Under the pieces are notes generated by a model that saw only the letters and a list, made by a program, of their open reading frames with translations, made no database searches and was not told where the DNA came from. This document shows positions 5,504-58,000 of a stretch of 64,000 bases of DNA, piece by piece; the first letter of the stretch is position 1; each line of letters opens with the position of its first letter. The stretch spans positions 1 through 64,000 of the forward strand of contig NIVC01003853.1 of assembly GCA_002269645.1 (NCBI GenBank), in the 5' to 3' direction. The DNA is from Macrostomum lignano (Eukaryota). The translations under genes and the position numbers were made by a program.

Positions 5504-8374
5504 CACTTACAGCCAGAAGTAGATCGTCAAGTCAACGAGTTGCTGGAAAAGGGGCAGATCGAAGAAGCACAGTCACCATGGTGCTTTCCTTTGGTGTGCG
5601 TAAAGAAGAAATCAGGGGAAATGAGGATGTGCGTCGATTATCGGAAGTTGAATGAGGTCACCGTCAAGGATGCAGTGCCGATGCCGAGGGTCGATGATGC
5701 GCTGGAGGCAGTACACGGCGCCAAGATCTTCTCGACAATGGACCTTCACAGCGGGTTTTGGCAAGTAGGGGTGAGACCTCAGGATCAGGACAAGACGGCG
5801 TTTGCAGTGCCGCATCGCGGACAATTTCGATGGAAGGTTATGCCGTTCGGCTTAGTGAACAGCCCAGCAACATTCACCAGGTTGATGGCAGCCGTTTTGG
5901 ACAAGCAGATGTGGAAAACCTGTCTCGTCTACATCGACGATCTACTGGTTTGGTCAACCGACGTGGATGAACACCTGAGAAGACTGGAGGAAATATTCAG
6001 CAAGTTGCGGCAAGCAAATTTGTGCCTGAAGCCCCAGAAGTGTCACTTTTTGCAAAAGCAAGTGAAATTTCTCGGTCACACGCTGTCGGCTGCTGGCATC
6101 AGTACCGATGAGGAGAAAGTTCAAGAAGTGAAGAACTGGCCAACACCGCGATCCTCGACGGAGCTGCATTCATTCTTGGGCCTGTGTGGCTATTACAGAA
6201 AGTTTATTAAAGATTTCGCCGCAATAGCAGCGCCTCTAACTCGGTTGACAACAAAAGACGCAAAGTTTGAATGGAAAACGGAACAGCAGCTGGCGTTCGA
6301 AACATTGAAGGAACGAATGACAAGTTCAGAGGTTATGGCTCATCCGGATTTCTCCCCGGATGCCGGAGAGTTTATCCTCGATACTGATGGCAGTTCGAAG
6401 ATGGGCATAGGAGCGGTACTTTCTCAAGTCCAGCCAGATGGAGCAGAACGAGTGATCGCCTATGGGTCCAAGACACTAAATCAAGCCGAACGCAACTATT
6501 GTACGACTCGTTTAGAACTACTAGCGGTTGTGACTTTCATCATGAAGTTCAGATACTATCTGCTTGGAAAAGCGTTCTGTCTGCGAACGGACCACAGCAG
6601 CCTGCAATGGTTAAAAAACTTCAGTGATGCCGAGGGACAGGTTGCTCGCTGGTTGGAGAAGTTGGCTCCATTTCAGTACCGCATCGTTCACAGACCAGGT
6701 CGATCGCATGGCAACGCGGACGCAATGTCGAGGAAGCCAGTACGGAGACATTTCGGAGCGGAGACATGCCCGGCATGTGCGCAGCATCCAGAAGGACTAA
6801 ATGCAGTCGAATTTGAACGATTCTCAGCCGGCAATCTGGCAAGCGAGCAGGATCAAGACGACGATTTGAGAACAGTAAAGGAAGCGCTTGGCTCAAACCC
6901 AGTCCCAGATAAAAGCGAGACAGCTTGGAGTCCACTGGCTAGAGCCGTCTGGACTCGAAAAGACGACCTGGTGCTGCAAGAGAAAGTGCTCCTTGTGAGA
7001 AACAAAGACAGGCGCGATGAGTATCAAATGGTGCTGCCACGAAAGGCATTGGATCGTATCTTGAAAACCCTACACGAGGGAGTGGGAGGTGGCCACATGG
7101 GCTTTGCGAAGACAAAATTTAAAGTGCTTCAGCGCTACTGGCGTCCAGGATTGTCTCGTGCCATTGAAGAATATATTCGCGGTTGTGCCACCTGCTGCAA
7201 GTCAAAGCCGGGCAAGCGAAACCGAGCACCCCTGCAACCGTTGACATTCGCAGCACCATTCGATTGCGTCATGATGGACATTGTCGGGCCGCTACCGCGG
7301 AGTAAGGCTGGAAACATTTATCTCCTGACAGTCCAAGATTCGTTTACGAAGTGGCCTGACGCGTACCCGCTTCGCAACCAGAAGGCAAGGACGGTGGCAA
7401 GGGCGCTTTTCAATCGATGGATTAGCCAGCATGGATGTCCGAGTACTTTGCACAGTGACCAAGGAAGGAACTTCGAATCGCAAGTGATGCGCGAAATGTG
7501 CAGGATACTCGAGATCCGCAAGTCCAGAACCACAGCTTATCATCCGAGCGGAAATGGACAAGTAGAAAACTTCAATAAAAGTTTAAAATCCATCCTCAAG
7601 TGCTGCCTAGAGGACTCAGGACGAAACGACTGGGAAGAATTCGTCAGCTCTGCGTTAATGGCGTACCGATCAAGCGTGCATCGAGCAACGGGTTATACTC
7701 CCCACTACATGGTCTATGGCACGGAGATGCGCCTACCGATAGACTTGACTGACCAGCCGCCACAGCCTGTCGATTCGCATGTAAATTTCGTCAAGGAGCT
7801 AGAAGACAAATTGCAGACAGCTCATCGCGCTGCTCGACAGCAGTTGAATACTTATCAGCGGCGACAGAAGGACCAGTACGATAAAAGAACCCGAGGATCC
7901 GATATTCAGGAGGGTGACCATGTCTTCGTCTACAGCCCCGCCCTGAAACCAGACGAAGCCGCAAAGTTTCACGTAAGCTGGCTCGGCCCAGTGAAGGTGC
8001 TCGAAAGAAGATCCGAGGTGCTCTTCAAAGTGGAAAACCCGTCAAATCGTAAAAAGTCGAAGTTCGTCCACTTCAACAACCTCCGGAAGTTCGCTCGACC
8101 GGCCGCCCTGGAAACACCAGTTAGGACCGCGGCACCGCCGGAGGTGGTCGACGAGACGGACTCGGAGACAGAGGCGGAATGCGAGACTTGGACTCGGCCT
8201 CAACTGATGCCGCCACAGGACGCCGAGGAAGTCGCCGAGGTGCTGGAAGAGCAGATGGAGTTGGTTGACGACCCGCAGCCTACTCATAACCCGGTGGAAG
8301 CTGCACCTGAGCCTCGAAGGTCCGGAAGGTTGCGACGGCCGCCGGATCGCTACGGCCAGCCAGTGACATTCTAA
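5504..8374 (+). CDS. pol: Pol fragment: reverse transcriptase, RNase H, integrase (N-terminally truncated)
   Basis: RT YIDD; RNase H ILDTDGS...ELLAVV; integrase H-H-C-C, MMDIVGPLP, HSDQGRNFES; Gypsy domain order; uninterrupted frame. Confidence 0.95.
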   Translation, partial: HLQPEVDRQVNELLEKGQIEEAQSPWCFPLVCVKKKSGEMRMCVDYRKLNEVTVKDAVPMPRVDDALEAVHGAKIFSTMDLHSGFWQVGVRPQDQDKTAFAVPHRGQFRWKVMPFGLVNSPATFTRLMAAVLDKQMWKTCLVYIDDLLVWSTDVDEHLRRLEEIFSKLRQANLCLKPQKCHFLQKQVKFLGHTLSAAGISTDEEKVQEVKNWPTPRSSTELHSFLGLCGYYRKFIKDFAAIAAPLTRLTTKDAKFEWKTEQQLAFETLKERMTSSEVMAHPDFSPDAGEFILDTDGSSKMGIGAVLSQVQPDGAERVIAYGSKTLNQAERNYCTTRLELLAVVTFIMKFRYYLLGKAFCLRTDHSSLQWLKNFSDAEGQVARWLEKLAPFQYRIVHRPGRSHGNADAMSRKPVRRHFGAETCPACAQHPEGLNAVEFERFSAGNLASEQDQDDDLRTVKEALGSNPVPDKSETAWSPLARAVWTRKDDLVLQEKVLLVRNKDRRDEYQMVLPRKALDRILKTLHEGVGGGHMGFAKTKFKVLQRYWRPGLSRAIEEYIRGCATCCKSKPGKRNRAPLQPLTFAAPFDCVMMDIVGPLPRSKAGNIYLLTVQDSFTKWPDAYPLRNQKARTVARALFNRWISQHGCPSTLHSDQGRNFESQVMREMCRILEIRKSRTTAYHPSGNGQVENFNKSLKSILKCCLEDSGRNDWEEFVSSALMAYRSSVHRATGYTPHYMVYGTEMRLPIDLTDQPPQPVDSHVNFVKELEDKLQTAHRAARQQLNTYQRRQKDQYDKRTRGSDIQEGDHVFVYSPALKPDEAAKFHVSWLGPVKVLERRSEVLFKVENPSNRKKSKFVHFNNLRKFARPAALETPVRTAAPPEVVDETDSETEAECETWTRPQLMPPQDAEEVAEVLEEQMELVDDPQPTHNPVEAAPEPRRSGRLRRPPDRYGQPVTF

Positions 8375-8788
8375 TGGGTTACTCGTCATCGTGAAGTCTC
8401 ATCAGTTTCATATGCGATTATCGTTAAAAGCCAGAAAAATATTTCGCGAATGCGTCATTCATCATAAATACGAGTACTTCATCAATGCATCATTCATCAT
8501 GAGTACGAGCAGTTCGCCAATGCGTCATTCAAGAAATTCGTTAATGCGTCATTAAGTCATTTTAATCGCATCTTCATCGAAGTTTTGACGAGAATCAAAT
8601 TTTGCCTACAAAATCTATGCATCGGTGGAGGGTATTCGGACTGGCATCCGGTGAAAACTCGAATTTGCGCTGGGACTTTACGATGCAGGGCCACGGTCCG
8701 AGAAGATGACGCTCTGGCAAGAGGGGAGCAGGAGTAAAATCTGGAGTCAGGGACAGTGTGTCGCAGGTTTGAGTACGTTGCTTTGCAG

Positions 8789-9736
8789 ATGGATTTGTAC
8801 GCTGTCCTCCAAGTCGGACACACAGCCGAACGTGCCGAGATCAGGCGAGTCTATCGACAGCTAGCGCTCTTCTGGCACCCGGACAAGCACCCGGACAAGG
8901 AACTCGCAGGACGCCGTTTCCAAGAAATTGAGACTGCTGGTAGAATTCTATCGTGTCCATATCGCCGAGCGATGTACGACCAGTTGGGCGATAAATCAAT
9001 CCCGTATGACGAGGCTGTAACCTTCGCAATGACGTTCATACCTCCTACTGGTGTAAGAATGCCGGCGGACATCGAAGAGGGAGTACAGCAAAGGCGAGAA
9101 GTTGAAGAAGCTCAGCGCAAGGAAGCTGGTCTCAGGCAGGGGAGACAGGGACAGAGGAACGATTACGAAGCGGATGGCTACATTCTAATCTCGGACGACG
9201 ATGAGAGCGAGGAGTCGGATGAGTGTAGCATCGACACAGAAGAAGAAGACGAGCTGCTGGCATCGGATGGCTCCTCCGGAAGTAGTGAGTCAGAAGCTAT
9301 GGAGATCGATGTACCGGAAAGCAAGGAGGTTGTCTCACATCGCGCGTCGGGAGCAATATGGGATGATGAAAAGCTGTCGTTATCGGCAGCTGCGCGTCAG
9401 CTCCGCCATCGTTTGATGAAGCATATTTTGGCTGGACAGTCGGACGGAATCGTGTCAGTGCTCACGGCTATGAGACGGCTGTTTCGAGACTCGCAGCGAG
9501 AACCGAGGAGCGCACTGTCAATGGTCCTGCTGCAGGCGTTGTTCTTCATCCGCAGAGATATCGCTCCGGTAAAGCGTCAGAGAGCAGGCCGCCGTTACTG
9601 GTCTAGGCAGAGTTTTGATTGTTTCGTCCGACAGCTCTGTCACGAGCTCATCCCGCTGTTCGGTTTGCGCCGGCCCGGCAGGCTGCTCGAGGTCCTGAAA
9701 AGCTGCGTCGGTCTCCCTGGACTTCGGGTTCGCTAG
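8789..9736 (+). CDS. Retrotransposon ORF3: J-domain (DnaJ/Hsp40-type) protein with acidic linker and helical C-terminal domain, 315 aa
   Basis: MDLYAVLQV...EIRRVYRQLALFWHPDKHPDKELAGRRFQEI...LSCPYRRAMYDQLG fits the J-domain consensus with HPD; first ATG follows the acceptor-like ttgctttgcag. Confidence 0.9.
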   Translation: MDLYAVLQVGHTAERAEIRRVYRQLALFWHPDKHPDKELAGRRFQEIETAGRILSCPYRRAMYDQLGDKSIPYDEAVTFAMTFIPPTGVRMPADIEEGVQQRREVEEAQRKEAGLRQGRQGQRNDYEADGYILISDDDESEESDECSIDTEEEDELLASDGSSGSSESEAMEIDVPESKEVVSHRASGAIWDDEKLSLSAAARQLRHRLMKHILAGQSDGIVSVLTAMRRLFRDSQREPRSALSMVLLQALFFIRRDIAPVKRQRAGRRYWSRQSFDCFVRQLCHELIPLFGLRRPGRLLEVLKSCVGLPGLRVR

Positions 9737-10383: not shown

Positions 10384-11282
10384 TGTAGTGCATGCGCCCT
10401 TGTCAGTTGGCAGGGCGCGTTGCACTTTAGGGCTGGTTGGGGGGGTTGGCGGGCGTGGCAGGGTCTGGCCGCCGGCCGGGTTTTGCGCGTGCCCCTCCCC
10501 AGCCGTGCCCCTGCCCCGTGCTCAGGGCTGGTTGGCTGCGGCCGGGCCAGCTTTGGCGCGGGTGCAGCCCCTCCCCCTTAGGCGGGGTTTTGATTGGCTG
10601 GGCCGGCGTGGTTTGTTTTGGTGAGCTTAGCCGGTGGGGCCGTCTGCCCCAGGGTTTGGGTGCTATTTATGGTGCGACTCTGGCTCTTGCCCACCACCTG
10701 CGTGCTTTTTGTGTTTTGGTGTGCTCCGAAAGTGCAAGCGCGAGACCTGATAAAAGAAACAGCAACATTAGCTACTTTGATAAAAGAAACAGCAACATTA
10801 GCTACTTGGATAAAAGAAACACAATAGCCTAATTGAGAAGAGTCTTGGAGAATTAAGAAGAAGTCGGAAACTGCGCTTGAGACCTGCGAATAATAAACGG
10901 TGAACAGTCATCTGGCCACTGGTAAGCCGCCTGCTGTTTGAGTCCTTTCTTTCCGGGAAGCTTGCTAGGCCGAATTCTTGCCAGAGCGTCATAACGCCGG
11001 GAGACCATATAGCTTCTGTAGTACGGTACCGTTTACCATATATATTGCGTACGCCTTACGGTATAGAGAATAGAAGCACTCGAGAGTGTCACCACACCTC
11101 GAGCCGCAGCGTGAACTCTGAGTGTCACAACACCAGAGGGATCGAATTATTATCGCAGAGCGTCGCCACGCCTGCTCGTCGTATTCATAAAAGTACAGAC
11201 AGAGCGTCACAACGCCTGTTATATCACATATAATATATATTGTACTCGGGACTGGGCACCCAAGCCGACCCGGGTTACAACA
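10384..11282 (+). repeat. 3' LTR of element 1 (right end uncertain)
   Basis: Starts TGTAGTG after the PPT; contains ATTGGCTG, TATTTAT (10664), AATAAA (10892), GTAAGC (10922); candidate end cccgggttacaaca resembles the other LTR ends in the window. Confidence 0.6.
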
Positions 11283-38100: not shown

Positions 38101-38664
38101 GCATTAATGCTTCGTAGACAAAATATATTTACTCACCGTTCTGTATAAACTCGCCAATTAGGTGTGCATCGCAATGCTGCAGCGGACAGCCACTCGAGAG
38201 CTGCAGGCCATGGCCCAAGGCCGAATCAGCAGGGACCGTCAAGTAGCATCTCCCGCCGTGCCTGAAGCTTGTGCTGGAGTTGCACGACTTCTGGCTCGTG
38301 ACAGAGACTGTCAGATTGTCGGATGCAGTCACATTTGTGACATTTGCCAGCTTGGCTGCGATGTTCACTGTGTCCCCACTGCAATGTAGGGTGTCAATTA
38401 TGCACTTCAAATCATTTTGACTGAACTCAACATTGCATAGCTGTTGCATAGCTGGTAGACGGTCAAAACTTTTCAAATCATGTCAATTTAGTCAAATCCA
38501 TCACACACGTCAACACAACTGAAGTACATGCAGTTTAAAACAAAGAAGTCCTTACGCATTCACAAAGATGTAGAGGCCAGAGCTGAGGTTCACTGAGTTG
38601 GCAAAGCCACTTCCTAAATTAAGAATGTAATCAGACCAGTTAGACAATAACACATTTAAGGTAT

Positions 38665-39487
38665 TGTTGTGAATTCGTAACTCAATGTATTTGCCCTTAC
38701 TGTAGTCTCTCTCTCTCTCTCTCCCTCTGCCAACCCTCCCCACCCCTTCCATGCTTGCAACTTGTTGTGAGTTATTTTCTTAGAGTACTTTATTTATTTT
38801 TTGGTGCCACTGCACTAGAACCAATCAATTGATGAACTATTATGGTAGTTGTTTATTTCATAGTTGTTCTTAGTTGTTTATTTCATAGTTGTTCTTAGTT
38901 GTTTATTTGTCCAGCCTATGTCTGCAACTTTCTTACCCCTGATTATTATTATCCCTCCCCCTCCGTGCTCTCTCATTGGCTGTCGCTGTTTTCTGTAATT
39001 CTGGTTTTCTACCCCCAGTCGCGTTTTGTGTGGCTGCAGCCAATCCCCGCTCGCTCTCTCTGCGCACCCCGCCTTTTCTCTTACCCTGCAGCTTTTGCCC
39101 CACCCCATGTTGTGCTGGCAGATATTTATTGGCGTGCGCTCCTGTCCTCTCCCCCCCCATGCGACCGCTTCTCCTCTGACTTCTTCGCCGCAAATAGTAT
39201 ATGACAATAAACCAAAAACAAGCGTGCCAACAATCGTGTTCAACCTAGACGCCCAGCGCGCCAAGTATCCGCGCCACAGTAAGTATCGTTCTGTTCCTGT
39301 CATTTCGGGGTCAAGTGCCTCTAGGACTTTGTCACCGGGGCCTGTGCGTTCGCTGCGACCCTGGTTGCTGGCCTACTGCCTGCGCGTTTGTGCGACAGTG
39401 GGTTGGCAAGCAGCAGGACTGGGGCTGCGTTTTCCTGCTCGTACAGAGCGCAAGACGTAGCTGGCTGGTCCGTCTCGGGACACAACA
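38665..39487 (+). repeat. 5' LTR (823 bp)
   Basis: Direct repeat of 46331-47169; ATTGGCTG, TATTTAT (39123), AATAAA (39206), GTAAGT (39279). Confidence 0.97.
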
Positions 39488-39488
39488 T

Positions 39489-39506
39489 TGGTGCCGTGAC
39501 CAGGAT
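39489..39506 (+). other. Primer-binding site, tRNA-His type
   Basis: TGGTGCCGTGACCAGGAT one base after the LTR, complementary to a tRNA-His 3' end (...GTCACGGCA-CCA). Confidence 0.85.
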
Positions 39507-39663
39507 AGGATTGTGCTTGAGGGTGTTTATGAGCTCGTGTTAGAATAGTTTAGATTAGTGCGGCTAGGGATCTGTTTGGAGGAGGGATTGCTTCCGATTT
39601 GTTAGTGTCGTTTTTACGTCGTTGTTTTTCTGTCGGTGTCGAGCATACGATTGCGCTGTCGTG

Positions 39664-40770
39664 ATGGGAGACGAAGGTGTGAATAGACTGGTGGAGTTAA
39701 TGTCCGCGTCAGTTCGTCGGGCGTTGCAGCAGGACATTAACGTGGCACAGAATGTACAGCGGCCAGCGAAGCCCCCGAAGTACTGCATTGGAGATAATTT
39801 CAGGCTATGGTTGCAGAGGTTCAATGCCTATTGTGAAGCATCGCAGATAGTGGAAGACGATCGCCGGCCTCATCTCCTCAGCTTCTTGGATCTAAATACG
39901 GCTTTCGCGGCAGTGGAGAATATTCAGCTGGAGGAGGGTGCCACGTATGATGATTTCACAGATGCACTCCTAGAAAGGTTCCAGCAGCACCGCACGGCCG
40001 AGGATTTCAAGCTGGAGCTGGAGTCGCGAGTCCAAAAAGAGGGCGAGACGTATGAGACTTATGCGGATGTGCTGTTAGAGTTAGCAAGGAACGCGTACCC
40101 AGATGAAGACATGCCAGTCGGAATCATCAACAGCTTTGCCAGAGACCGCTTCAAGAAGGGCATTCGAGCACCGGAACATGTCAAAGAGTACGTTATGCTG
40201 CAGCAACCCGCCACCCTTACGGATGCGGTTCGTTGCGTGCGACGTAAGGAGGCCGCCGGTCGAGCCGCCAAGCCGACAGGTTCAGAACAGGCTTACCGGA
40301 AAATTGCTTCGACCGTTGGTGCGGTGAATACCGGAGGCACCAGTTCAGACGGATTAGAAGAACTTCAACAGCGAATTCGAGACCTGGAAGGGCAGTTGAA
40401 GCGGCTGAATCAGGCACCGCCTCCTCAACAGTCTGCTGCACCCTCGTCTTCTGGGTCTGCGCATTCGCGCGGCCCGGGGCCTGGGTTGCAAGGTGGCAGA
40501 GGGGCCTGCGTGTATGGCGCGACCCCTAGTCATCTGGCAGGGCAGCAGCAGAGGCAGGCCGGTGCTTGCTTTCAGTGTGGAAACATCGGCCACCTAGCGC
40601 GCGAGTGCCCGAGTCGCTCCGGAATGATGCAGCAACCGCAGTCAAACCCAGCGGCGAGGACCGGCGGTCCGAGGCGTTGCTACGCGTGCAACCAGCCGGG
40701 TCATCTGGCCAAGAATTGTCGGTCGGGAAACTTCAACAGAGGTCCTGGGAAGGGGAGCCAGGGCCTCTAA
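39664..40770 (+). CDS. gag: Gag with two CCHC zinc knuckles
   Basis: CFQCGNIGHLAREC and CYACNQPGHLAKNC; first ATG at 39664. Confidence 0.93.
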   Translation: MGDEGVNRLVELMSASVRRALQQDINVAQNVQRPAKPPKYCIGDNFRLWLQRFNAYCEASQIVEDDRRPHLLSFLDLNTAFAAVENIQLEEGATYDDFTDALLERFQQHRTAEDFKLELESRVQKEGETYETYADVLLELARNAYPDEDMPVGIINSFARDRFKKGIRAPEHVKEYVMLQQPATLTDAVRCVRRKEAAGRAAKPTGSEQAYRKIASTVGAVNTGGTSSDGLEELQQRIRDLEGQLKRLNQAPPPQQSAAPSSSGSAHSRGPGPGLQGGRGACVYGATPSHLAGQQQRQAGACFQCGNIGHLARECPSRSGMMQQPQSNPAARTGGPRRCYACNQPGHLAKNCRSGNFNRGPGKGSQGL

Positions 40771-43700
40771 TCCAGTCAGCCAAACCTCCCCCGTCCAGTC
40801 AGCAGCCGGTCGACACACCAAGTCTGATGATGCAGCCCACCAGTGTGTACGTGTCCTGTCAAATCGGTGGTCAGGTGGTCTCTGCATGTGTCGACTCGGG
40901 CGCTGCTGTGACGATCATAAATGAAGCTTTGCTTCAGAGAGTGGGAAAGACTTGGACAAAATCGCCACCGAGTATTCAGCCTCATAAATCAACAATCCAT
41001 GCTGCCAACGGCAGCCCAATCAACATCAGTGCGATCTGCCAACTTCCGTTAACGATAGGCGAGAGCGAATTGAGTATGACAGCTCTAGTATCCTCGTCGG
41101 TTTCCTACGAGCTGTTAATGGGAGCCGACTTTCTGCTTAAGCACAACTGCCGCATCGATTTTCAAGATGGTGTACTTCACCTAGCAGATGCCAGCGTTCC
41201 GCTACGTTTTCACCAACGGCCTGCGACTGTGTGTCGCATTCTAGCGTCGGAGCGAATTGTGGTTCCGCCTGGAGCAGAGAAGATAGCATCTGGTCGATTC
41301 TTAATGAAGGGTGGAAGAGGACGATACACGAGAAGCCCAGGAGTAATTGAGGAAAGTCAAGACCGGAAGCGCGCAGGTTCCGCGGTGTTAGCGAGGTCCT
41401 TAGTGATGCCCACGGAAGACGCTCGAGTCCCCGTACGGCTGGCAAACTTCTCGGAGGTTCCTGTCACCATCCGCAAGGGCGAGACAGTTGCGTGGTACCA
41501 CCCGCTCGATCCGCTGCAGCCCATCGCGCTAGCAGCGTTGAGTGAAGCCAAGGATGCAGCTCCGACACTGGAAAAGCCTCGCCAAGAAGAGAGTGAGGCG
41601 GCCGAGGAGCTCCTAGCAGGTCTGAAGAATTGGGGAAGTTGTGGTTTGTCGGCAGAGCAAGAGGCGAAGTTCAAAGCGCTAATCCAGTGCAACAGAGACG
41701 TATTTGCAACCGAACTTGCCGAGGCCACGGTAACGAATGTCAGTGAGCACCGAATCGACACGGGGACGGCAAGACCTATCAAACAGGCTCCACGACGACT
41801 GCCGCCACATCTTAGAGCAGAAGTTGACGAGCAACTTGATGAGCTTCTGGCGCAAGGAAAAATCGAAGAGGCAATGTCCCCATGGAGCTCGCCAGTGGTC
41901 TGTGTGCGAAAGAAAGACAATTCGCTTCGAATGTGCGTGGACTATCGTCGGGTCAACGACGTGACCGTTAAGGACGCCATTCCGCTACCTCGCGTCGATG
42001 AAGCCCTAGAAGCGCTACATGGAACAGCCGTGTACAGTTCCCTAGATCTGCGATCTGGCTACCATCAAGTTCCGGTGGCTGCAGAAGACCGAGACAAGAC
42101 CGCATTTGCTGTGCCGCACCGCGGACAATTCCGATGGCTAGTGATGCCGTTTGGTGTCACCAACGGCCCAGCAACGTTCAGCCGCATCATGCAAACTGTG
42201 CTGCACCCATTGGCCTGGAAGATATGCCTCGTGTATCTGGACGACATTTTGGTTTTTTCCAACACCGTGGAAGATCATCTGGCCAGGTTGAGTGAAATTT
42301 TTCAGCGGCTGAGAAGTGCAAATCTAAAGCTGAATCCGAAGAAGTGCGAGCTGCTCAGTTCCGAAGTGAGCTTTCTGGGTCATCGAGTCTCGGCGGACGG
42401 CATCGGAACTGACCCAGAGAAGGTCCGAGCAATTCGCGAGTGGCCGACACCATGCACTGTCAAGGATGTGCAAGCGTTTCTCGGCACTGTTGGCTACTAC
42501 CGGCGTTTTATTCAAGATTTTTCGCACACAGCTGAACCGTTGACGGAACTGACGAGATCTACATCACCGTTCCAGTGGGGATCGGCCCAAGAAGAAGCCT
42601 TCCAGCGGCTGAAAGAGGCGCTGACCGGAGAACAGGTCATGGCGTACCCGAACTTCGCTCCAGATGCACCGCCGTTCATCCTGGATACAGATGGCAGTTC
42701 GTCAGTGGGAATCGGAGGCGTCCTATCTCAGCTGCAACCGGACGGGTCGGAGAAAGTCATTGCGTACGGATCACGCACCCTGTCATCTGCAGAGCGGAAT
42801 TACTGCACGACCCGCGTTGAGCTCCTCGCTGTAGTCACCTTTATTCGCCAATTCAAGTACTTTCTGCTCGGGAAGCACTTCATTCTTCGAACCGACCATA
42901 GCAGTCTGCGCTGGCTGCATTCATTCAAGAATGTTGAAGGTCAAGCTGCGAGATGGCTGGAGCAGCTAGCCTGCTTTGACTACACGATCATACATCGAGC
43001 AGGCCGGGACCATGGGAATGCCGACGGGTTATCACGTAGGCCGAGAAGCCACTTTGGAGCAACCACGTGCCCGTCCTGCAAGGAGCAGCCTGAGGTCGGT
43101 GCAGTAACATTCGAGTCGGGACTCCAACAACGCGTCCATGAAGCGCAGCTCAAGCATCCTGAACTACGTCCGCTAAGACAGGCAGTGCAGACAGGGCGAC
43201 TAGAGTCGCTTGGAACTGGGCACCCGGGACCAGGAACACCCTACTGGAAGGCGCTGATGGCCAGAAAAGATGAACTGTGCATGGTCAATGACCTGCTGTG
43301 CATCAGGACAGAGAAGAATTTCAAAGTTGTTCTGACGGCAGAAACGACGAATTTGGTCATCTCAGAATTACACAGTGGAGCCAGTGGAGCGCACAGCGGA
43401 TTTTTCAAGACGAAGAAAAAAGTGACCTCGCGATTTTGGTTTCCGGGCCTTGGCAGACTGGTAGAAGAGTTCATTCGATGCTGTGTAACCTGCGGAAAAT
43501 CAAAGACGAAGCAGCGAGGCCGAGCACCCCTCGAGCCGATTCAAACTGGTGCTCCATTTGAACGTGTCATGGTTGACATTGTCGGACCGCTTCCACGAAC
43601 AAGGAAAGGAAACATGTACGTCCTGACGATTCAAGATGCTTTCACCAAATGGCCGGATGCGTACCCGCTTCGAAACCAGAAGGCTGCAAGCTGTGCAAAG

Positions 43701-44648
43701 GTGTTTGTCGAACGCTGGATCAGTCAACACGGATGTCCGCAGTTCCTGCACTCGGATCAAGGCCGAAATTTCGAGTCAAGATTAACTACGGAACTGTGCT
43801 CGTTGCTAGGCATCAAGAAGACAAGAACGACACCGTACCACCCAATGGGGAACGGTCAAGTGGAAAGCTTTAATCGTACGCTCGGCACCAGCTTGAGAAG
43901 CCTGATGGTCGAAAATGGAGCAGCGCAGTCAAGTTGGGAAGAATTTATACCGGCGGTGCTAATGGCGTATCGGTCCAGTGTACATCGAGGAACCGGCTAC
44001 ACACCGCACTACCTGGTGTACGGTGAGGAGATGCGACTGCCTGTTGACCTGATGAACAAGCCGCCTCAAGTGCAGCCGAGTGAAACAACGGAATATGTTG
44101 CTGAACTACGTCGCAAGATGCAAGCAGCTGGCGACACCGTGCGGACCAACCTGTCGACGTATCAGAGACAGCAAAAGGATCAGTACGACACGGGAGCTCG
44201 TGGTTCGGGATTCAACGAAGGAGATCTGGTCTACGTGTATCAGCCTTGTCTGGAGACCGGCGAAGCAAAGAAGTTCCATGTGTACTGGACTGGACCGGTG
44301 AAAGTGTTCAAGCGAGAAAGTGCGACTCGATACAGGGTAGGGCACCCGACGAACAACCGGAAGAGGAAAACCGTGCACTTTAACAACTTGCACCTTTACC
44401 GTCGCGCTGAACGGAGCGAGCAAGATGGGCAACGTGTACCGGTCCCTGAGCAACGGGAATCCGATGAGCACAACGAGGAGGAGGATGATGATGAAGACGG
44501 CGAGAGTGATTGGGTGCAGCTGCCTCAACCCGAAGCAGTAGATTTCGGAGTCCCTGGCAGTCCGGGTAGGCCACCCACGCCAGAGCGTCGTTACCCGGTT
44601 AGAAACCGGGTCCCTACGCAGTTTTTTGGTAATCCCGTGCGTCACTGA
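40566..44648 (+). CDS. pol: Pol (protease, RT, RNase H, integrase), probably translated as Gag-Pol
   Basis: Protease VDSGA; RT YLDD; RNase H ILDTDGS; integrase HHCC and DIVGPLP / HSDQGRNFES; 1360-codon open frame. Confidence 0.97.
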   Translation: MLSVWKHRPPSARVPESLRNDAATAVKPSGEDRRSEALLRVQPAGSSGQELSVGKLQQRSWEGEPGPLIQSAKPPPSSQQPVDTPSLMMQPTSVYVSCQIGGQVVSACVDSGAAVTIINEALLQRVGKTWTKSPPSIQPHKSTIHAANGSPINISAICQLPLTIGESELSMTALVSSSVSYELLMGADFLLKHNCRIDFQDGVLHLADASVPLRFHQRPATVCRILASERIVVPPGAEKIASGRFLMKGGRGRYTRSPGVIEESQDRKRAGSAVLARSLVMPTEDARVPVRLANFSEVPVTIRKGETVAWYHPLDPLQPIALAALSEAKDAAPTLEKPRQEESEAAEELLAGLKNWGSCGLSAEQEAKFKALIQCNRDVFATELAEATVTNVSEHRIDTGTARPIKQAPRRLPPHLRAEVDEQLDELLAQGKIEEAMSPWSSPVVCVRKKDNSLRMCVDYRRVNDVTVKDAIPLPRVDEALEALHGTAVYSSLDLRSGYHQVPVAAEDRDKTAFAVPHRGQFRWLVMPFGVTNGPATFSRIMQTVLHPLAWKICLVYLDDILVFSNTVEDHLARLSEIFQRLRSANLKLNPKKCELLSSEVSFLGHRVSADGIGTDPEKVRAIREWPTPCTVKDVQAFLGTVGYYRRFIQDFSHTAEPLTELTRSTSPFQWGSAQEEAFQRLKEALTGEQVMAYPNFAPDAPPFILDTDGSSSVGIGGVLSQLQPDGSEKVIAYGSRTLSSAERNYCTTRVELLAVVTFIRQFKYFLLGKHFILRTDHSSLRWLHSFKNVEGQAARWLEQLACFDYTIIHRAGRDHGNADGLSRRPRSHFGATTCPSCKEQPEVGAVTFESGLQQRVHEAQLKHPELRPLRQAVQTGRLESLGTGHPGPGTPYWKALMARKDELCMVNDLLCIRTEKNFKVVLTAETTNLVISELHSGASGAHSGFFKTKKKVTSRFWFPGLGRLVEEFIRCCVTCGKSKTKQRGRAPLEPIQTGAPFERVMVDIVGPLPRTRKGNMYVLTIQDAFTKWPDAYPLRNQKAASCAKVFVERWISQHGCPQFLHSDQGRNFESRLTTELCSLLGIKKTRTTPYHPMGNGQVESFNRTLGTSLRSLMVENGAAQSSWEEFIPAVLMAYRSSVHRGTGYTPHYLVYGEEMRLPVDLMNKPPQVQPSETTEYVAELRRKMQAAGDTVRTNLSTYQRQQKDQYDTGARGSGFNEGDLVYVYQPCLETGEAKKFHVYWTGPVKVFKRESATRYRVGHPTNNRKRKTVHFNNLHLYRRAERSEQDGQRVPVPEQRESDEHNEEEDDDEDGESDWVQLPQPEAVDFGVPGSPGRPPTPERRYPVRNRVPTQFFGNPVRH
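40725..40767 (+). promoter_or_regulatory. -1 programmed ribosomal frameshift signal
   Basis: Slippery G GGA AAC in gag frame, 7-nt spacer, 10-bp stem GAGGTCCTGG / CCAGGGCCTC; pol is in the -1 frame. Confidence 0.85.
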
Positions 44649-44749
44649 CCAGTCATGGAGCGAACGCACAGGATGAAGGAGGCAGAAAAGTGCATGAATT
44701 TAAATAGTCGTCTACCTTCTAGCAAGTCAATTGCCGTTTCATTTTTAGT

Positions 44750-45601
44750 ATGTACTACGAAGTCCTGGGTGTCGCATCTGATGCGACCACGCAGCAGGTT
44801 AAGAAGGCTTACTACCAGCGCATACGTCACGCACATCCAGACAAGGTGGGGCCAGGCGCTCGGCGGCAGGCACAAGAAATAAATGAAGCGTATCAAGTAT
44901 TGAGTGATCCGTTTCTGCGAATCGTGTACGAACAGTTTGGTCCTGAGGGTGCGCAGGCGCCGAAAATGTTTCTGTCACGACTGAGACTGCCAGCTGGGAT
45001 GGCAATACCAACTGAGTACTTTGAGCAGGTGGAAATATCGTCAGAATCTGAGGATGACACCGAGGATGAGCAGGAAAGTCGACTGCAGTTGGTCGGGAAG
45101 CCGAGTGTGGGAAGCGAAGATGAGCCGGTGAATACAGCGGTCCGCAACAAATTGAAGCGCGCTTGTTTACGTGGGAACGCGTCGGAAATTGCGAGGTTGA
45201 TGGCGGAAATCCGGCAGTTATATTCGGCGCGTCAGGCGGTAGCTGAGGTCAAGAGAGCGTTACTGAATGGGTTAAAGGATCTAGCGACGAAAAAGATTGG
45301 CCGCTCGAAGATTGTCATGAGCGTTGACGAGTACAAATCGACATCAAGAGCGGTGCGGGAAGCTGCTCAGTCGCTAGAGTTCCGCTGTGTAGGAGTGTTA
45401 GTAGCGTCAGTGCGTCGCTTTAGGCCCTTCCTGGTCAATAAGGTTTTTAGGCGGGCACCAATGGCACCCGGGACGGGGGAACCCAGCCGTTCCAGCCCTG
45501 CTGCGGACGCGGATGTCCTGGTGCTGGACGCCGAGGAAGAGGACCTGGATGACCTGGGCGAGGAAGCGACGAGCGGCGGCATGAACTCGTTGAAACTGTG
45601 A
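44750..45601 (+). CDS. Retrotransposon ORF3: J-domain protein with acidic segments and helical C-terminal domain, 283 aa
   Basis: MYYEVLGVASDAT..QVKKAY...HAHPDKV...QEINEAYQVLSDP.LR.VYEQFG; homologous to 8789-9736 beyond the J-domain. Confidence 0.93.
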   Translation: MYYEVLGVASDATTQQVKKAYYQRIRHAHPDKVGPGARRQAQEINEAYQVLSDPFLRIVYEQFGPEGAQAPKMFLSRLRLPAGMAIPTEYFEQVEISSESEDDTEDEQESRLQLVGKPSVGSEDEPVNTAVRNKLKRACLRGNASEIARLMAEIRQLYSARQAVAEVKRALLNGLKDLATKKIGRSKIVMSVDEYKSTSRAVREAAQSLEFRCVGVLVASVRRFRPFLVNKVFRRAPMAPGTGEPSRSSPAADADVLVLDAEEEDLDDLGEEATSGGMNSLKL

Positions 45602-46317
45602 ACGTCGAACGACGGATCGTGGCGACAGAATGTTAAGGACCCGGGCCCGGGTTCAGCCTTAGCAACTGCCGCGGAGGCGATGCAAGCGTTCATCGAAAAG
45701 TCTTGTCGCGAGTGACCTACAATGTACCTGCCCTACACCTGACCTACAGCGCGCCAGCCCCACACCTGACCTACCGCACACCAGCCCTACATTTGACCGC
45801 CTAAGCTGAGTGCACCTGAGTTTTGAAAGTCAGTTTAGACTACTGTAAAATTTTCGAAGATTGCTTATTCCTTGCGCTGTTGTTGATTCTCAGGAGTTTC
45901 AATTTCAATTTTGTTGCTGGTTTTGAGATCGTGCTGCAAGCCTGGCTGCGTCTGAGATGCCTTAATTGCTGGCGTGATGCTAATTCTTAATAATTGTTTT
46001 TTGCATAACCAAGTTAATACAACGTTAATTGTCATCTTTTTGCCCTGTTGGCCAATTTTCTGTTCAATGCTCAATGTTCATGTTCCGTATTCCATGCCAA
46101 CGTTGAATTTTCCATGTTGTGTTCTCCCTTTCACCCTTTCATTTTTTGCGTCATCCATCACTCTTCATGCCATTGCCAGCCGGCTCGCTCTCAATCACTG
46201 GTGAAGGGAATTTTTTTGCTCATCTCGCTCATCGCATGCAAAGGCCCCGCTGATACTTGTACAAGCCGAATTGTCTCAAATACCGTACCGTACAAACATT
46301 TTTTGTGTGACTTCGTC

Positions 46318-46330
46318 AAGAAGGGGAGAA
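46318..46330 (+). other. Polypurine tract of element 2
   Basis: aagaaggggagaa abutting the TG of the 3' LTR. Confidence 0.9.
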
Positions 46331-47169
46331 TGTTGTGAATTCGTAACTCAATGTATTTGCCCTTACTGTAGTCTCTCTCTCTTTCTCTCTCCCTCTGCCA
46401 ACCCTCCCCACCCCTTCCATGCTTGCAACTTGTTGTGAGTTATTTTCTTAGAGTACTTTATTTATTTTTTGGTGCCACTGCACTAGAACCAATCAATTGA
46501 TGAACTATTATGGTAGTTGTTTATTTCATAGTTGTTCTTAGTTGTTTATTTCATAGTTGTTCTTAGTTGTTTATTTGTCCAGCCTATGTCTGCAACTTTC
46601 TTACCCCTGATTATTATTATCCCTCCCCCTCCGTGCTCTCTCATTGGCTGTCGCTGTTTTCTGTAATTCTGGTTTTCTACCCCCAGTCGCGTTTTGTGTG
46701 GCTGCAGCCAATCCCCGCTCGCTCTCTCTGCGCACCCCGCCTTTTCTCTTACCCTGCAGCTTTTGCCCCACCCCATGTTGTGCTGGCAGATATTTATTGG
46801 CGTGCGCTCCTGTCCTCTCCCCCCCCCATGCGACCGCTTCTCCTCTGACTTCTTCGCCGCAAATAGTATATGACAATAAACCAAAAACAAGCGTGCCAAC
46901 AATCGTGTTCAACCTAGACGCCCAGCGCGCCAAGTATGCGCGCCAAGTATCCGCGCCACAGTAAGTATCGTTCTGTTCCTGTCATTTCGGGGTCAAGTGC
47001 CTCTAGGACTTTGTCACCGGGGCCTGTGCGTTCGCTGCGACCCTGGTTGCTGGCCTACTGCCTGCGCGTTTGTGCGACAGTGGGTTGGCAAGCAGCAGGA
47101 CTGGGGCTGCGTTTTCCTGCTCGTACAGAGCGCAAGACGTAGCTGGCTGGTCCGTCTCGGGACACAACA
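46331..47169 (+). repeat. 3' LTR (839 bp)
   Basis: Near-identical to the 5' LTR. Confidence 0.97.
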
Positions 47170-47929
47170 GTATCAAAAATCTATGCGAATAATTAAGCGA
47201 ACATGCTCACCACTTAAGTGCGATACACCCAGCCAGAGTCCTTGTCTTGGCTCGGGAGGTTGGAGTTGGAGAACGCTGTTATTCTCGACCACATTGATCT
47301 TCCACCGACAAACCACATTTGTTATCACGGTGGTCTCGCTAGCAAACCGTTCGTGGAAATATAAAGTTAAACTCCTTCCTCCCTCGACATCAAATTTGTG
47401 CCAAAGCTGTTCTCGACAGTGCGCCACTTCAGCCGTTGCGACTCTGAAATTCGATGAAAAAATGGCTAATTGTACGTGTCTGACTGATTAAAACAGAAAA
47501 ATCTGACAAAAAGGCAGAGAATCTGCTACAGAATGGGAGAAAATATTTCGTGGCGATCAGAAGTGTCAGAGCTTATACTCATGTGCGGTAAATTATTAAA
47601 TTAAATTAAAAATTAGCAAAAAAGATAAGATAAGAGACTTTTGATGCCAAGCTAATTGACAGACAAGCAGAGTTTCATCAAAAGAGGCTGATACTAAACG
47701 TCATTAAAAGACCAAGCTCTTAGATCCATTTGACACACAAGACAAATATCTGAGACAAAACAGTTTACAATGAAGTGTAAGAGACTCAGTTGACATACAG
47801 ACAGTTGACAGAGAAGAACAATGTTCTCGATGATCTGGATTTTTAGCAGGGAAGGCAAAGAATTATGTAGAAAAAAATGCAAGCAGACAAAAGCTTGACA
47901 GCCCGGTTGTGAACAAGTCGAAGCAAGAG

Positions 47930-52216: not shown

Positions 52217-54992
52217 ATGCTCCTGAACATGCTGCTGCTGCTGGCTTGAGGACGGCGGAGCAAAGCAGAAAATCTGAAGAAAAAAAATTGAAATTAGCAA
52301 AGGAAAGCACTGGAAAGCATTCACCGTCAGATCCACCCGCCTATACCATATGTGCCACTTTTTCTACCAGAAACACAGGTACACCATCAGCTGAATTGCC
52401 TACCACAAATCTAAATTGCCTACGACAAAGCTAAATTGCCTACCACAAAGCTAAATTGCCTACCACAAATCTACATTGCCTACCACAAAGCTAAATTGCC
52501 TACCACAAATCTACATTGCCTACCACAAATCTACATTGCCTACCACAAATCTACATTGCCTACCACAAATCTACATTGCCTACCACAAATCTACATTGCC
52601 TACCAAAAAGCTACATTGCCTACCACAAAGCTACATTGCCTACCACAAATCTACATTGCCTACCACAAATCTACATTGCCTACCACAAATCTACATTGCC
52701 TACCTCAAATCTACATTGCCTACCACAAATCTACATTGCCTACCACAAAGCTACATTGACTACCACAAATCTACATTGCCTACCACAAAGCTACATTGAC
52801 TACCACAAAGCTACATTGCCTACCACAAAGCTGCAGCTTCAAAGACTTTCCAACTTAAACTCTCACCCTGTCCTTCTGGTCGATCTGCGTGTCCGGTTCC
52901 GGGAAGGTCATCACAAACCATCCGCTGGTGGTGTCTGAAGATTTGTCCTTTTTCTTCACGGCACGCCTGCGGTAGACGCCCAGACACATGATCTCGAACC
53001 TGTCCAGGCAGCTGATAACCAGGTCCTCCCACTTCATCTCCTGCAAACCGGAAGTGATTCTAGCTACCCTATACGGTAAACCGGAAGTGATTCAAGCTAC
53101 CCTATACTGCAACCCGGAAGTGATTCAAGCCACTCTATACTGCTACCGGAAGTGATTCAAGCCACCCTATACTGCAACCCGGAAGTGATTCAAGCCACTC
53201 TATACTGCTACCGGAAGTGATTCAAGCTACCCTATACTGCAAACCGGAAGTGATTCAAGTTACCCTATACGGTAAACCGGAAGCTGGCTCATAAACTGGC
53301 CGCTATCACAGCCACCCTCAGTAGCCAGCAACTAAACGGCAAACCTTGCAGTCGAACAGCTGGAAGATGTCCTTCAGCGGGAAGTCGGTCGACTTCAGCA
53401 GCATCAGGCGGAAGCCGTAGACGCGGCTGTGCTCCGTCAGGTCCCCGCGGCTCAGGCAGCTGGGGATGCAGAAGTCCAGGCTGAGGTAGTCGTCCACGCT
53501 GGGCTGGTTGGAGCCGTGGATGATGGACTCCAGGAAGGCCAGGGACTCCGGGCAGAAGTACACGGACGCCAGCAGGCCCGTCAGGTTTGGCGACGACACG
53601 ACAAGTCCTTCGGCGAATGACTGCGTGTCCATCACGTCGGCCGCGGAGATGTCCGTCAGGCGCTCGGTCGGGTCGGAGAAGCAGTACGCGTTGGGCGAGT
53701 AGTACAGCTCCGAGGTCACGTGACAGTCCTTGGCGCCGATGCCGCGCAGGTTCTCGGTGCACAGCAGGGTCATCTTGTCGGCCAAGAAGGGGTCGCAGGA
53801 GGAAGACCGCTCGGCGAGGTTGATGACGGTCATGGCGGCGGCCTGGTGGGCGCGGCAGTACAGCAGGTGCTGCGGGAAGATGCCGTTGCCGTCAACCACG
53901 TAGATGAAGGGGAAGTTGCGGATGCCGCGCCACTCGTGCTGCTCGATGGACTCGGCGTCGCCGAGGATGACGATGTCGCTAAGCTGCTCGGCGGGGATGG
54001 AGCAGTTGCGGAGCGGCAGCACCAGCGAGGACATGCCGATCGGGTGCTTCAGGGAGCCGATGATGGCCACCAGGGTGTGGCCCCGGAACTCGATTTCCTT
54101 GGCCTCGTCGACGCTGAGCTTCCGGCAGCGCCGATTCGGCGCCCAGTGCAGTGTGCCGGTGATGTCCAGCAGCGGCGGCACCTCGTGCTCGGCGGCGTGC
54201 AGCTCGCGCTTCGTGCTGCAGCGGGCGTCGACGCTGTCGCGGAACCAGTTCTCCAGGCGGTGCTCCTCCTCGTGACCGGTGATGGCGGAGGCTCGGCGAA
54301 CTGTCTGCTGCTGAAGCTGGCCTTGGAACCTGAGCAGCGGCACGTCCGACCAGTCTGTAGGGAGGGGGGGGGTTGCGGAGAGCGGCTGGTGCGTCTCGAT
54401 GACTTCTTCAGTATTGTCCTCTGAATATTGTCCTCTAGCCTATCATGGGTGCAGGAATAGAATGGATTGCTAATCTAGCCTATCATGGGTGCAGGAATAG
54501 AATGGATTGCTAATCTAGCCTATCATGGGTGCAGGAATAGAATGGATTGCTAATCTAGCCTATCATGGGTGCAGGAATAGAATGGATTGCTAATCTAGCC
54601 TATCATGGGTGCAGGAATAGAATGGATTGCTAGTCCAGCTCGTGAATGAAGGAGCAGATTGAGGAGCTCGACTGTCTCCGTAGCAACTCACCCACATCGC
54701 CCGTGAGGTCAAAGCCAACTCCTGCAGTGACGGATTCGTCGCCGGTGTGGCTGGTGCTGCGGGGTCAGTGAGTGCAAGGGGCGGTGGGTATTCAGCATGG
54801 GGTGGAAAAATGGGCGAGAACAGCAGCAGCTGCTGGCTGCCCGCCCACTCACTCCGTGTCTTCCAGCTCCGCCCTGTACGACAGCTCCGGGTCGGGAATT
54901 GTGCTCTGGTCATCGGTGAGGGTGTCCAGCACCGCCACGAAGTCTTCTTTGAGACCTCCGCCGCTGCTGCCGCCTCCTCCTGCACCGCCGCC

Positions 54993-55057
<65 letters not shown>

Positions 55058-58000
55058 CCCGCGGCCGGCTTCCACGCCTTCGTAGCCTCTGCTGCTGCTG
55101 ATATCTGGTTAAAGGGTGGGTGAATTTCGGTGGCCGAATACTGGGTGAATTTTTGTGACTTTGGTGAATGGTAGATGAATACTATGTGAATGCTGTGGGA
55201 ATGCTGTGTGAATGCTGTATGAATACTGTATGAATGCTGTGTGAATGCTGGCTAAATACTGTGTGAATGCTGTGTGAATGCTGTGTGAATGCTGTGTGAA
55301 TGCTGGCTAAATACTGTGTGAATGCTGTGTGAATGCTGTGTGAATGCTGGCTAAATACTGTGTGAATGCTGTGTGAATGCTGTGTGAATGCTGTGTGAAT
55401 GCTGTGTGAATGCTGTATGAATACTGTGTGAATGCTGTGTGAATGCTGTGAGAATGCTGGGTGAATGCTGTGTGAATGCTGTGTGAATGCTGGCTAAATA
55501 CTGTGTGAATGCTGTGTGAATGCTGTGTGAATGCTGTGTGAATGCTGGGTGAATCCAGGGTGTAGCACTCACTGTGCACCAAAACGCCACTGAAGTCATT
55601 GGCCGTGCCGGCCGCAAACCTCCGGACGGACTCAGTGTCGCGGCTCATTAGGAAGGCCTTCATGGTGCTAGGGTTGATGACGAATCCGGGGTCAAAGGCG
55701 GGGTTGATGACCCCGGTCAGCACGCCCGTCAGCTTGTCCACCATGCAGACGCCCATCAGCAGGATGCTGTATGTCTGAGGAGCGGGGGTGCTGTGTTTTT
55801 ATTGCTGCTGTCGGGAACAGGGCAGACCTCGAGAGCAGCAAGCGGTTTACCTGGTAGGCCTCCAGCGCGAGCTTCTTGAAGCTGCGGTCCCGGTGCTTCG
55901 CCGTGAAGCCGACGCAGTAGATTTTCACCTGGATGCCAGCGCTGTAGGCGGTGCGCCAGCTGGTGCTCTTGGACCCGAGCCGCCTCCCGGCGCCCGAGTA
56001 GTCCACGAGGTCACCCGAGGCGGCGCCGCCCCCGCTGTCACCGGCGTTGCCGCTGGAAGCTGCATTGAGTTCGTCTTCTTCTGAGCTCTGGGACTCGCGA
56101 TAGCTGAGCAGGTTGATGAGCAGAGTGGCCAGTCCGGGTGCCACCGAGTTGATGCCCATGAGGCCCAGCAGCACCTGGTTGTCGCACAGAACCGCATCTG
56201 GTGGCAGCGAGCCCGGCTTGCCCTGCTTGGTGCGCCACAGCGGCAGCGCACGGAACGATTGCTGAGGGGGGGCAGTTGGTCAGGCAATGAGCTGAGGACA
56301 TTGCTGTGTGTGCATGGCAGTGAGCTGCGGACATTGCTGTGTGTGCATGACAGTGAGCTGCGGACATTGCTGTGTGTGCATGACAGTGAGCCGCGGACAT
56401 TGCTGAGGGATTGCGGTTGGGTCATGCTCTTGATCTGCACAATGACTCACTTTGTGAAACATGCCCTTGATCTGCACAATGACTCACTTTGTGAAACATG
56501 CTTTTGATCTGCACAATGACTCACTTTGTGAAACATGCTCTTGATCTGCACTATGGTGCGGCACTGGGGGGAGCAGAGCTTCAGGCCGATGGTGCGCACA
56601 TAGTTGATGCGGTCCGCTTCAAAGTCCGAGTGAGCGCTGCCAGCCTCCGAGGTGAGGATGATGGCCTCGGCGGAGTTCAGCTTGCAGCCCTGGATCAGGA
56701 ACTCGGCGTCGCTAGGGCTGCCGAACACCACCGTGATGCGACCGCAGAATGAGCGCAGGAACCACATGATCTGCTCGGAGACCTGGTTGCTGAGGTGTGG
56801 GAAGCGGGTGGTTGTTAAGATGTAGGAGGCGGTTGGTTGCTAGGGGTATTAGTTGCTGAATGCTCAAAGCCGATCGCAACAGTACTAATTCACAGCGCCT
56901 TAAAGAAACAAAGTCATGAACTTCTCTCTCACCTTTGCAGAAAGCAGACCCTGATAATTCCGTCAGTTGACAGAGAAATATTGTGGTAGAAGTTCCAGAA
57001 GAAGGACTTGAGCTTGTTCAGCTGAGAGGAGCCGCAGTAGATGATGTGCCTGGAGTCAAAGTGGGAATATTCTCAAGTACTGTGACAATCGGTTGAAAAA
57101 TCAGGTCGCTAACAGGCGCCGCTCACCCCTCGCTGGCTCCCGTGTAAAATGACCGATTGCCGAAGTTTTGCGGCACCGAGCACACGGCGTAGATGTCCGG
57201 GATAATTGACGCGAAAAATGTCTGCGAACGGGCAATGGATGAAACTAGTTTGTGTGGCTTTACGAGATGCTGAGTGGTGGTTGCTGAGGTGTGGGAGGCG
57301 GGTGGTTGCTGAGGTGTGGGAGGCGGGTGGTTGCTGAGGTGTGGGAGGCGGGTGGTTGCTGAGGTGTGGGAGGCGGATGGCCTCTGTTGACCTGCACTGC
57401 TGTGGGGCTGTGCTGTGCTGTGGGCTGTGTTGTAGGGTTGTGTTGTAGGGTTGTGTTGTAGGGTTGTGTTGTAGGGTTGTGTTGTAGGGTTGTGTTGTAG
57501 AGTTGTGTTGTAGGGTTGTGTTGTAGGGTTGTGTTGTAGGGTTGTGTTGTAGGGTTGTGCTGTGGGCTGTGTTGTAGGGTTGTGTTGTAGGGTTGTGCTG
57601 TGGGCTGTGTTGTAGGGTTGTGTTGTAGGGTTGTGTTGTAGGGTTGTGTTGTAGGGTTGTGTTGTAGGGTTGTGCTGTGGGCTGTGTTGTAGGGTTGTGT
57701 TGTAGGGTTGTGTTGTAGGGTTGTGTTGTAGGGTTGTGTTGTAGGGTTGTGTTGTAGGGTTGTGTTGTAGGGTGTGTTGTAGGGTTGTGTTGTAGGGTTG
57801 TGTTGTGGGGCTGTGTTGTCGGGCTGTGTTGTAGACTGTGCTGAGGACTGTGCTGTGGGGCTGTGTGTGCTGTGGGGCTGTGTGCGCTGTGGGTTGTGCT
57901 GTGGGCTGTGCTCTGGGGCTGTGTGTGCTGTGGGCTGTGCCGTTGGACTGTGTGTGCTGTGGGGCTGTGCTGTGGGCTGTGCTGGAGGCAGGTGACTGCT

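Follow-up and report, generated by a model that had tools for sequence, protein, structure and literature searches.

The 64,000 nucleotides (nt) of contig NIVC01003853.1 of Macrostomum lignano analysed here (the window) contain a young and intact copy of a Ty3/gypsy retrotransposon, element B (38665-47169), whose third open reading frame (ORF3) encodes a DnaJ protein. Element B belongs to a clade of J-bearing elements, and we consider it probable (roughly 0.8) that in this clade ORF3 is made from an mRNA of its own, by cis-splicing of a donor within the long terminal repeat (LTR) to an acceptor at the ORF3 start; in element B, the predicted splice joins 39278 to 44749. The reading rests on sequence comparison, with donor and acceptor kept in all seven deep lineages examined. 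An env-style spliced RNA for ORF3 had been proposed in a first-pass annotation of the window. The comparison across lineages, including the start codons of families D2 and F, lends strong support to this proposal, but the joint itself was not seen in the low-depth data examined.

Elements with a J-domain ORF3

Genome searches and fetched stretches yielded the J-bearing families A, A2, B, C, G, D, D2, E, E2, F, F2 and M within the organism's own genome. In a tree of reverse transcriptase (RT) and RNaseH sequences, one clade comprises 14 of the 30 rows (support 96/94) and seven deep lineages; its members share 53-63% RT identity with family B. Between families, the match of F with K is the only long one among the LTRs, and the spacers between pol and ORF3 (101-414 nt, containing 1-13 ATGs each) match over 12-17 nt only. 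The first-pass annotation had called the spacers of element B and of a second copy in the window, element A, unrelated, and blastn indeed finds no match between the two. The ratio of nonsynonymous to synonymous substitutions (dN/dS) in the J domain is 0.07-0.08 in three pairs, with synonymous sites saturated. At the level of sequence, these values show purifying selection on ORF3, and they imply that ORF3 has been translated.

Families I and K keep the LTR donor and lack the J domain; both were recently copied (L197, L198, L200, L202, L253). Family K arose from F by deletion and retains intact gag and pol, which indicates that the J-protein is dispensable in cis. Family I carries a region of no assigned identity behind pol. 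A further candidate for a family with a donor and without ORF3, family H, was rejected, as it is the LTR type of the J-bearing family D2. One copy of family B (L034 / P0015), in which an internal deletion fuses pol to the J domain, is represented by one protein in NCBI.

Splice acceptor at the ORF3 start

The acceptors have in common a YAG (Y denoting a pyrimidine), mostly as part of the motif [T/C]TNCAG, and an AG-free zone of 13-30 nt before it. The first-pass annotation had suggested comparing the acceptor across family copies. Its AG is kept in nearly all of them, throughout the seven lineages: in all copies of A (27/27), C (26/26), D (19/19), E (5/5) and B (4/4), as well as in 21 of 22 copies of M and 10 of 11 copies of F/F2. 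Left out of these counts are host-like DnaJ loci that lack pol (among L052-L069, L088 and L089), L005 and L034 (site lost by internal deletion), L209 (no ORF3 in the stretch), L082 (rearranged), and the 5'-truncated copies L238-L240, L245 and L246.

The offset between AG and ATG is 0 in A, A2, C, E and E2, 1 nt in B and G, 7 nt in M, and 16 nt in D. Seven of the nine family representatives that have an ATG show a YAG at most 1 nt from it, and the remaining two carry TTGCAG at 7 and 16 nt. As background, 1354 ATGs of these loci were considered; a YAG occurs within 1 nt of 7.2% of them, and [T/C]TNCAG within 16 nt of 4.7%. The gag start served as a control and shows neither arrangement (0/6 for both). 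An AG-free zone of at least 13 nt ahead of the acceptor is present in 12 of 12 representatives, compared to 38% of the background. The earlier description of the site as a pyrimidine-rich 3' splice site holds for the element B copy (71%) but less so for the other families (47-59%). An acceptor in front of gag was also considered and was rejected: the nearest YAG is 11-214 nt off, and none has the ORF3-type motif.

These patterns bear on the explanation that ORF3 is translated from unspliced RNA, by means of an internal promoter, internal entry or reinitiation, with the AG being a relic of a captured host exon. The capture of a host DnaJ exon together with an intron end would account for the origin of the AG, and across the acceptor unspliced contigs were the sole form seen. 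However, a relic AG should not outlast synonymous saturation within spacers that cannot be aligned. The acceptor offsets, moreover, shift between families (0, 1, 7 or 16 nt, or inside the start codon) with a phase matched to the LTR exon, and the spacers share no sequence and hold several ATGs in some families and one in others. We regard translation from unspliced RNA as very improbable. Read-through from pol into ORF3 was considered separately and was rejected, since the ORF3 frame differs from that of pol in B and C and additional stops intervene in A and E.

Splice donor within the LTR

In 11 of the 11 LTR types of the clade, a GT[AG]AG donor follows a TATA-like box at a distance of 122-234 nt and precedes the end of the LTR by 143-509 nt. 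Outside the clade, the same arrangement is found in one of 10 LTRs by our own reading, with 15% expected by chance. The donor sequence of element B, GTAAGTAT, recurs unchanged in 30 of 30 B-like LTR loci, including those with no more than about 79% identity (40 of 108 candidate loci were scored). The predicted first exon is free of any ATG in 7 of the 11 LTR types. Short upstream ORFs (uORFs) had been named as a caveat in the first-pass annotation, and they are indeed present in the element B copy: one of 6 and one of 15 codons, neither of which extends to the donor. No canonical heat-shock element was found in the 11 LTRs of the J clade.

Two further observations concern these LTRs. In element B (39300-39310) and in families C, E and F, a short T-rich motif with GG at its end is found 20-30 nt past the donor, within LTRs that are otherwise not alignable. 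A B-like LTR subfamily (L111-L120, L147-L153; 76-85% identity) carries the same donor; seven stretches were fetched for it and contained no match to gag, pol or the J domain.

A different use of the donor was also considered, namely that its main job is the U1-mediated block of premature polyadenylation in the 5' LTR, with the splicing of ORF3 being secondary. Such a use is compatible with an ORF3 mRNA made by cis-splicing. In 7 of the 11 LTR types, AATAAA precedes the donor by 30-115 nt, the donor persists in the J-less families I and K, and the donor of element B matches the U1 consensus over all eight intron bases. In HIV-1, the donor lies outside the LTR, 195 nt downstream from its poly(A) signal, and is missing at the RNA 3' end (PMC3694450). 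Element B is similar in that the donor is downstream of a candidate poly(A) signal. It differs in that the distance to AATAAA is 73 nt and in that the donor, being inside the LTR, occurs at both ends (39279 and 46961), such that the asymmetry of HIV-1 is absent. Foamy viruses likewise have a donor within the LTR, at both ends, and a spliced RNA that starts from an LTR exon; their donor, however, lies in R and precedes the poly(A) signal, whereas that of element B follows its candidate signal. In addition, no AATAAA is present between TATA box and donor in C, F2, I and K (4 of the 11 LTR types). The HIV-1-like suppression of polyadenylation invoked in the first-pass annotation is thus not supported in the form given there, and a block of polyadenylation as the main job of the donor appears unlikely.

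Lineages that tie donor to acceptor

Both sites can be related to each other in families D, D2, F and F2. In D and D2, a mini-ORF (MSAIIDPA and MSRFDPA, respectively) starts with an ATG 26 or 23 nt ahead of the donor and leaves two bases over at its end. On the acceptor side, the J frame is entered after one base, matching the phase of this remainder. D2 has CTA in place of the second ATG of D and no in-frame ATG upstream (3/3 copies), and L247 carries both donor and acceptor. In F and F2, the acceptor is directly followed by TG, the genomic codon being GTG, and A is the last base of each of three differing donor exons. The ORF3 of D2 and F hence lacks an ATG of its own at the start of the domain, and going by these sequences the LTR exon would supply the start codon. 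A start codon taken from the LTR exon favours cis-splicing over trans-splicing of the host spliced leader (SL).

The latter alternative holds that the acceptor is mainly used by SL trans-splicing, which would release ORF3 in the manner of a downstream operon gene, with the donor otherwise employed. SL trans-splicing affects about 30% of the genes of Macrostomum lignano, with [T/C]TNCAG as top acceptor motif (PMC8629364), and most ORF3 acceptors carry this motif. The pol-ORF3 spacers are also similar in length to operon spacing. The LTRs of family D contain a 42-nt copy of the SL exon from which the final TG is missing; LTR and LINE elements with SL pieces have been reported from parasitic flatworms (PMC12582326). 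By our own reading of the offsets, the AUG at the end of the SL would be in frame for A, A2, C, E and E2 (offset 0), would miss the frame in B, G, D and M, and would leave D2 and F with no usable start. An upstream cis donor, present in 11 of 11 LTRs of the clade, disfavours trans-splicing (Conrad 1993, as cited in a later paper), and no SL-like loose end was seen at 44749 in the low-depth contigs described below. Taken as the main use of the acceptor, SL trans-splicing is quite unlikely.

The published SL of Macrostomum lignano is found in the genome, and a 33-mer of it has 84 exact matches; LTRs of family D account for 18 of the 30 loci that were read (L161-L182 among them), with the SL exon copy placed in the predicted first exon (about 1209-1250 in the oriented stretch L045). 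Stretches L183-L190 contain true SL RNA genes, consisting of the leader, GTAAG and a T-rich site between hairpins, with several genes per contig at distances of 11-25 kb. In L167, L168, L169 and L181 the leader, ending in ATG, is joined to other sequence, and these loci look like retroposed trans-spliced mRNAs.

RNA evidence and points against

Putative RNA data were available as contigs (depth about 4-10) of three runs guessed to be RNA, from three studies, and of one unlabelled run, out of 24 runs listed. In run X1 only, one contig stops at 39278 and one record leaves the element exactly at 39278, as use of the donor would give. NCBI annotates the ORF3 of family C as a stand-alone protein of 328 amino acids (PAA78660.1, PAA83624.1), which lends weak support. 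No spliced DNA copies were found among 27 copies of A, 26 of C, 22 of M and 19 of D, as expected for an RNA without the primer-binding site (PBS).

A number of observations weigh against an ORF3 mRNA made by cis-splicing. The junction 39278^44749, which the first-pass annotation had named as a check, is not present as a joint in the contigs of the four runs, and among the loose ends listed for the three guessed-RNA runs none lies at 44749. One contig of X1 (41381-46330) and one of X9 (44642-45126) run unspliced across the acceptor, and depth over ORF3 is not above that over pol but flat across both. Since contigs drop rare forms, these data show only that no spliced form dominates in those runs. 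The branch at 39278 in X1 joins foreign sequence rather than ORF3, and as a single record of low depth it may be an artefact.

Further points concern the sites themselves. Copies within a family are near-identical and their counts not independent, so that the seven lineages are the real sample. TATA boxes and donors were picked by eye after viewing, some LTRs offer several candidates, and two of the control LTRs outside the clade are incomplete, being cut by the end of the stretch. The donor is retained in I and K despite the absence of a J domain. Among the four copies of family B that retain the acceptor, two have TAG and two have AAG, the weaker acceptor. The copies of D2 and F are old and no longer intact, a GTG can itself serve as start codon, and in one F2 copy (L059) an ATG in frame is found 19 codons upstream.

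The ORF3 protein

Pfam recognizes in ORF3 only DnaJ, plus Chromo or TatD in some families; homology to viral envelopes was not detected. The HPD motif is present in families A-E and in four homologues from outside, and is lost in M. Family C has an added chromodomain (E 1e-12), and a TatD-like domain is found in F, K and M (E 1e-6 to 3e-4, with only F above the cut-off); variants with these additions are seen at L038:6989-7975, L203:7167-8843 and L061. Alignments further reveal, past the J domain and an acidic linker, a helical domain of about 110 residues that is conserved across families, modelled with a confidence (pLDDT) of 83. For this domain, profile hidden Markov models compared with solved structures, as well as Foldseek, VIA-align (best Z 8.6, over 46 residues) and Atlas, gave no clear match, and hence neither a known nor a new fold is shown.

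Full-length homologues of ORF3 are found in Logan and JGI contigs. One homologue from outside has Leu-Gln ahead of its aligned start Met, the residues expected from an in-frame TTGCAG, a weak hint at the level of protein only. Two scans of metagenomes gave no match, and a viral scan returned generic J domains only. In plants, a host J-protein that acts in transposon silencing has been described (PMC8616336). ORF3 may recruit Hsp70 to chromatin or silencing complexes.

Features of the window

The coordinates of both elements are listed in Table 1. Element B exhibits the hallmarks of Ty3/gypsy elements, namely TG...CA LTRs, a PBS (tRNA-His type), a polypurine tract and a target-site duplication (GTAT, 4 nt; 38661-38664 and 47170-47173), and gag is followed by pol in the order protease, RT, RNaseH and integrase. 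Three indels are the only differences between its two LTRs. Transcription is predicted to start at about 39150-39155. Within the gag-pol overlap, the heptamer GGGAAAC (40726-40732) is a candidate site for -1 frameshifting. The motifs given in the first-pass annotation were found in place in both elements (in B with GTAAGT at 39279 and a single T between the AG and the ATG). The GTAAGC at 10922 belongs to the 3' LTR of element A, a copy truncated at its 5' end, and is of no use to the ORF3 of that copy. Full copies of family A, such as L079, do carry a GTAAGC donor in the 5' LTR.

Table 1. Features of elements A and B in the window.
Feature	Position	Strand	Remark
pol of element A (family A; RT to integrase)	5621..8374	+	second element, 5'-truncated
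Acceptor TTGCAG of element A	8783..8788	+	abuts ORF3 ATG; kept in 27/27 copies
ORF3 of element A	8789..9736	+	DnaJ domain and helical domain
3' LTR of element A	10384..11282	+	TATTTAT 10664, AATAAA 10892, donor GTAAGC 10922; ends taken from full copy L079
5' LTR of element B	38665..39487	+	TG...CA, 823 nt
TATA-like box TATTTAT	39123..39129	+	in an invariant 6-nt run across 30 related LTRs
Two short uORFs (39159-39179, 39201-39248)	39159..39248	+	in predicted first exon
AATAAA, candidate poly(A) signal	39206..39211	+	second copy at 46875 in 3' LTR
Candidate major splice donor GTAAGTAT	39279..39286	+	within LTR, upstream of PBS
PBS	39489..39506	+	predicted intron would remove it
gag of element B	39664..40770	+	two CCHC knuckles
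pol of element B (protease, RT, RNaseH, integrase)	40827..44648	+	-1 frame relative to gag
Candidate 3' splice site	44727..44748	+	T-rich tract, 20 nt AG-free, TAG at end
ORF3 of element B	44750..45601	+	DnaJ domain with HPD (amino acids 2-60; Pfam E 2e-17), acidic linker, conserved helical C-terminal domain
3' LTR of element B	46331..47169	+	polypurine tract before it; AATAAA (46875) and donor (46961)

Elsewhere in the window, two ORFs with a methyltransferase domain (26539-27516 on the minus strand and 61151-61801 on the plus strand) and two long tandem arrays (a 36-nt unit repeated 44 times from 16018 and a 34-nt unit repeated 60 times from 19120) are observed. Exon-like ORF pieces at 53300-58200 on the minus strand show an apparent resemblance to a potassium channel gene.

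Discussion

The proposed cis-splice from 39278 to 44749 would remove PBS, gag and pol. The unspliced RNA of about 7.7 kb would then serve for Gag, Pol and packaging, and a minor spliced RNA of about 2.3 kb would serve for the J-protein; without a PBS, the spliced RNA could not serve the element as a template. The start codon, in D2 and F, would likewise come from the first exon. The least certain steps concern the protein: as a dispensable accessory factor, it probably brings host Hsp70 through its J domain to a target picked by the helical domain and, in some families, by the chromodomain or TatD-like module.

Splicing of a third ORF behind pol is known from Ty3/gypsy elements of insects. The env of insect endogenous retroviruses is expressed from a spliced subgenomic RNA, with the upstream exon adding a short peptide in ZAM and Beagle and supplying the AU dinucleotide of the env start codon in springer (bioRxiv 10.1101/2023.08.03.551782). 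The sequences of D/D2 and of F show both of these start arrangements. In contrast to errantiviruses, ORF3 encodes here a J-domain protein instead of an F-type envelope, the junction is predicted, and the LTR itself holds the donor, ahead of the PBS.

A stretch with the LTR and PBS motifs of the published Gmr1/Osvaldo family Mlig-id38 (L204; PMC12801592) groups with the J clade (86/86) in a tree that contains no reference Osvaldo sequence. Mlig-id38 differs from the clade by a short LTR with one heat-shock element and by having neither donor nor ORF3. The main text of that paper (PMC12801592) contains neither 'DnaJ' nor 'splic', and 13 hits in its supplement belong to a gene-expression table. 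A literature search, conducted mostly at the level of listings, retrieved no report of a DnaJ ORF3 in LTR retrotransposons; an earlier classification paper may mention the ORF. The mechanism is of a known kind, that of errantivirus env splicing, and cargo and layout are new to the literature searched.

Viral J domains that act as Hsp70 co-chaperones include those of the polyomavirus T antigen and of pestivirus Jiv insertions. These are parts of replication proteins or polyproteins, whereas the J-protein described here is a separate accessory ORF in the position of env. As a tentative and rather improbable extension, the env slot could be understood as a modular accessory gene: a spliced, PBS-free mRNA would encode an Hsp70-recruiting J-protein with a helical domain of no assigned kind and swappable chromodomain or TatD-nuclease-like modules, acting on the chromatin or silencing machinery of the host as a factor of counter-defence, and one family would in addition have copied the spliced leader into its LTR exon.

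Env-style splicing is seen as a mark of infectious retroelements, and it appears here, start codons from the upstream exon included, to serve a cargo that is not an envelope. This suggests that taking a gene into a third, spliced slot is a general way for LTR elements to gain accessory genes. With the donor placed ahead of the PBS, the accessory mRNA would be kept apart from the RNA that replicates. An Hsp70 co-chaperone encoded by a retrotransposon and equipped with chromatin-reading or nuclease-like modules is a candidate counter-silencing protein, in a tractable stem-cell model.

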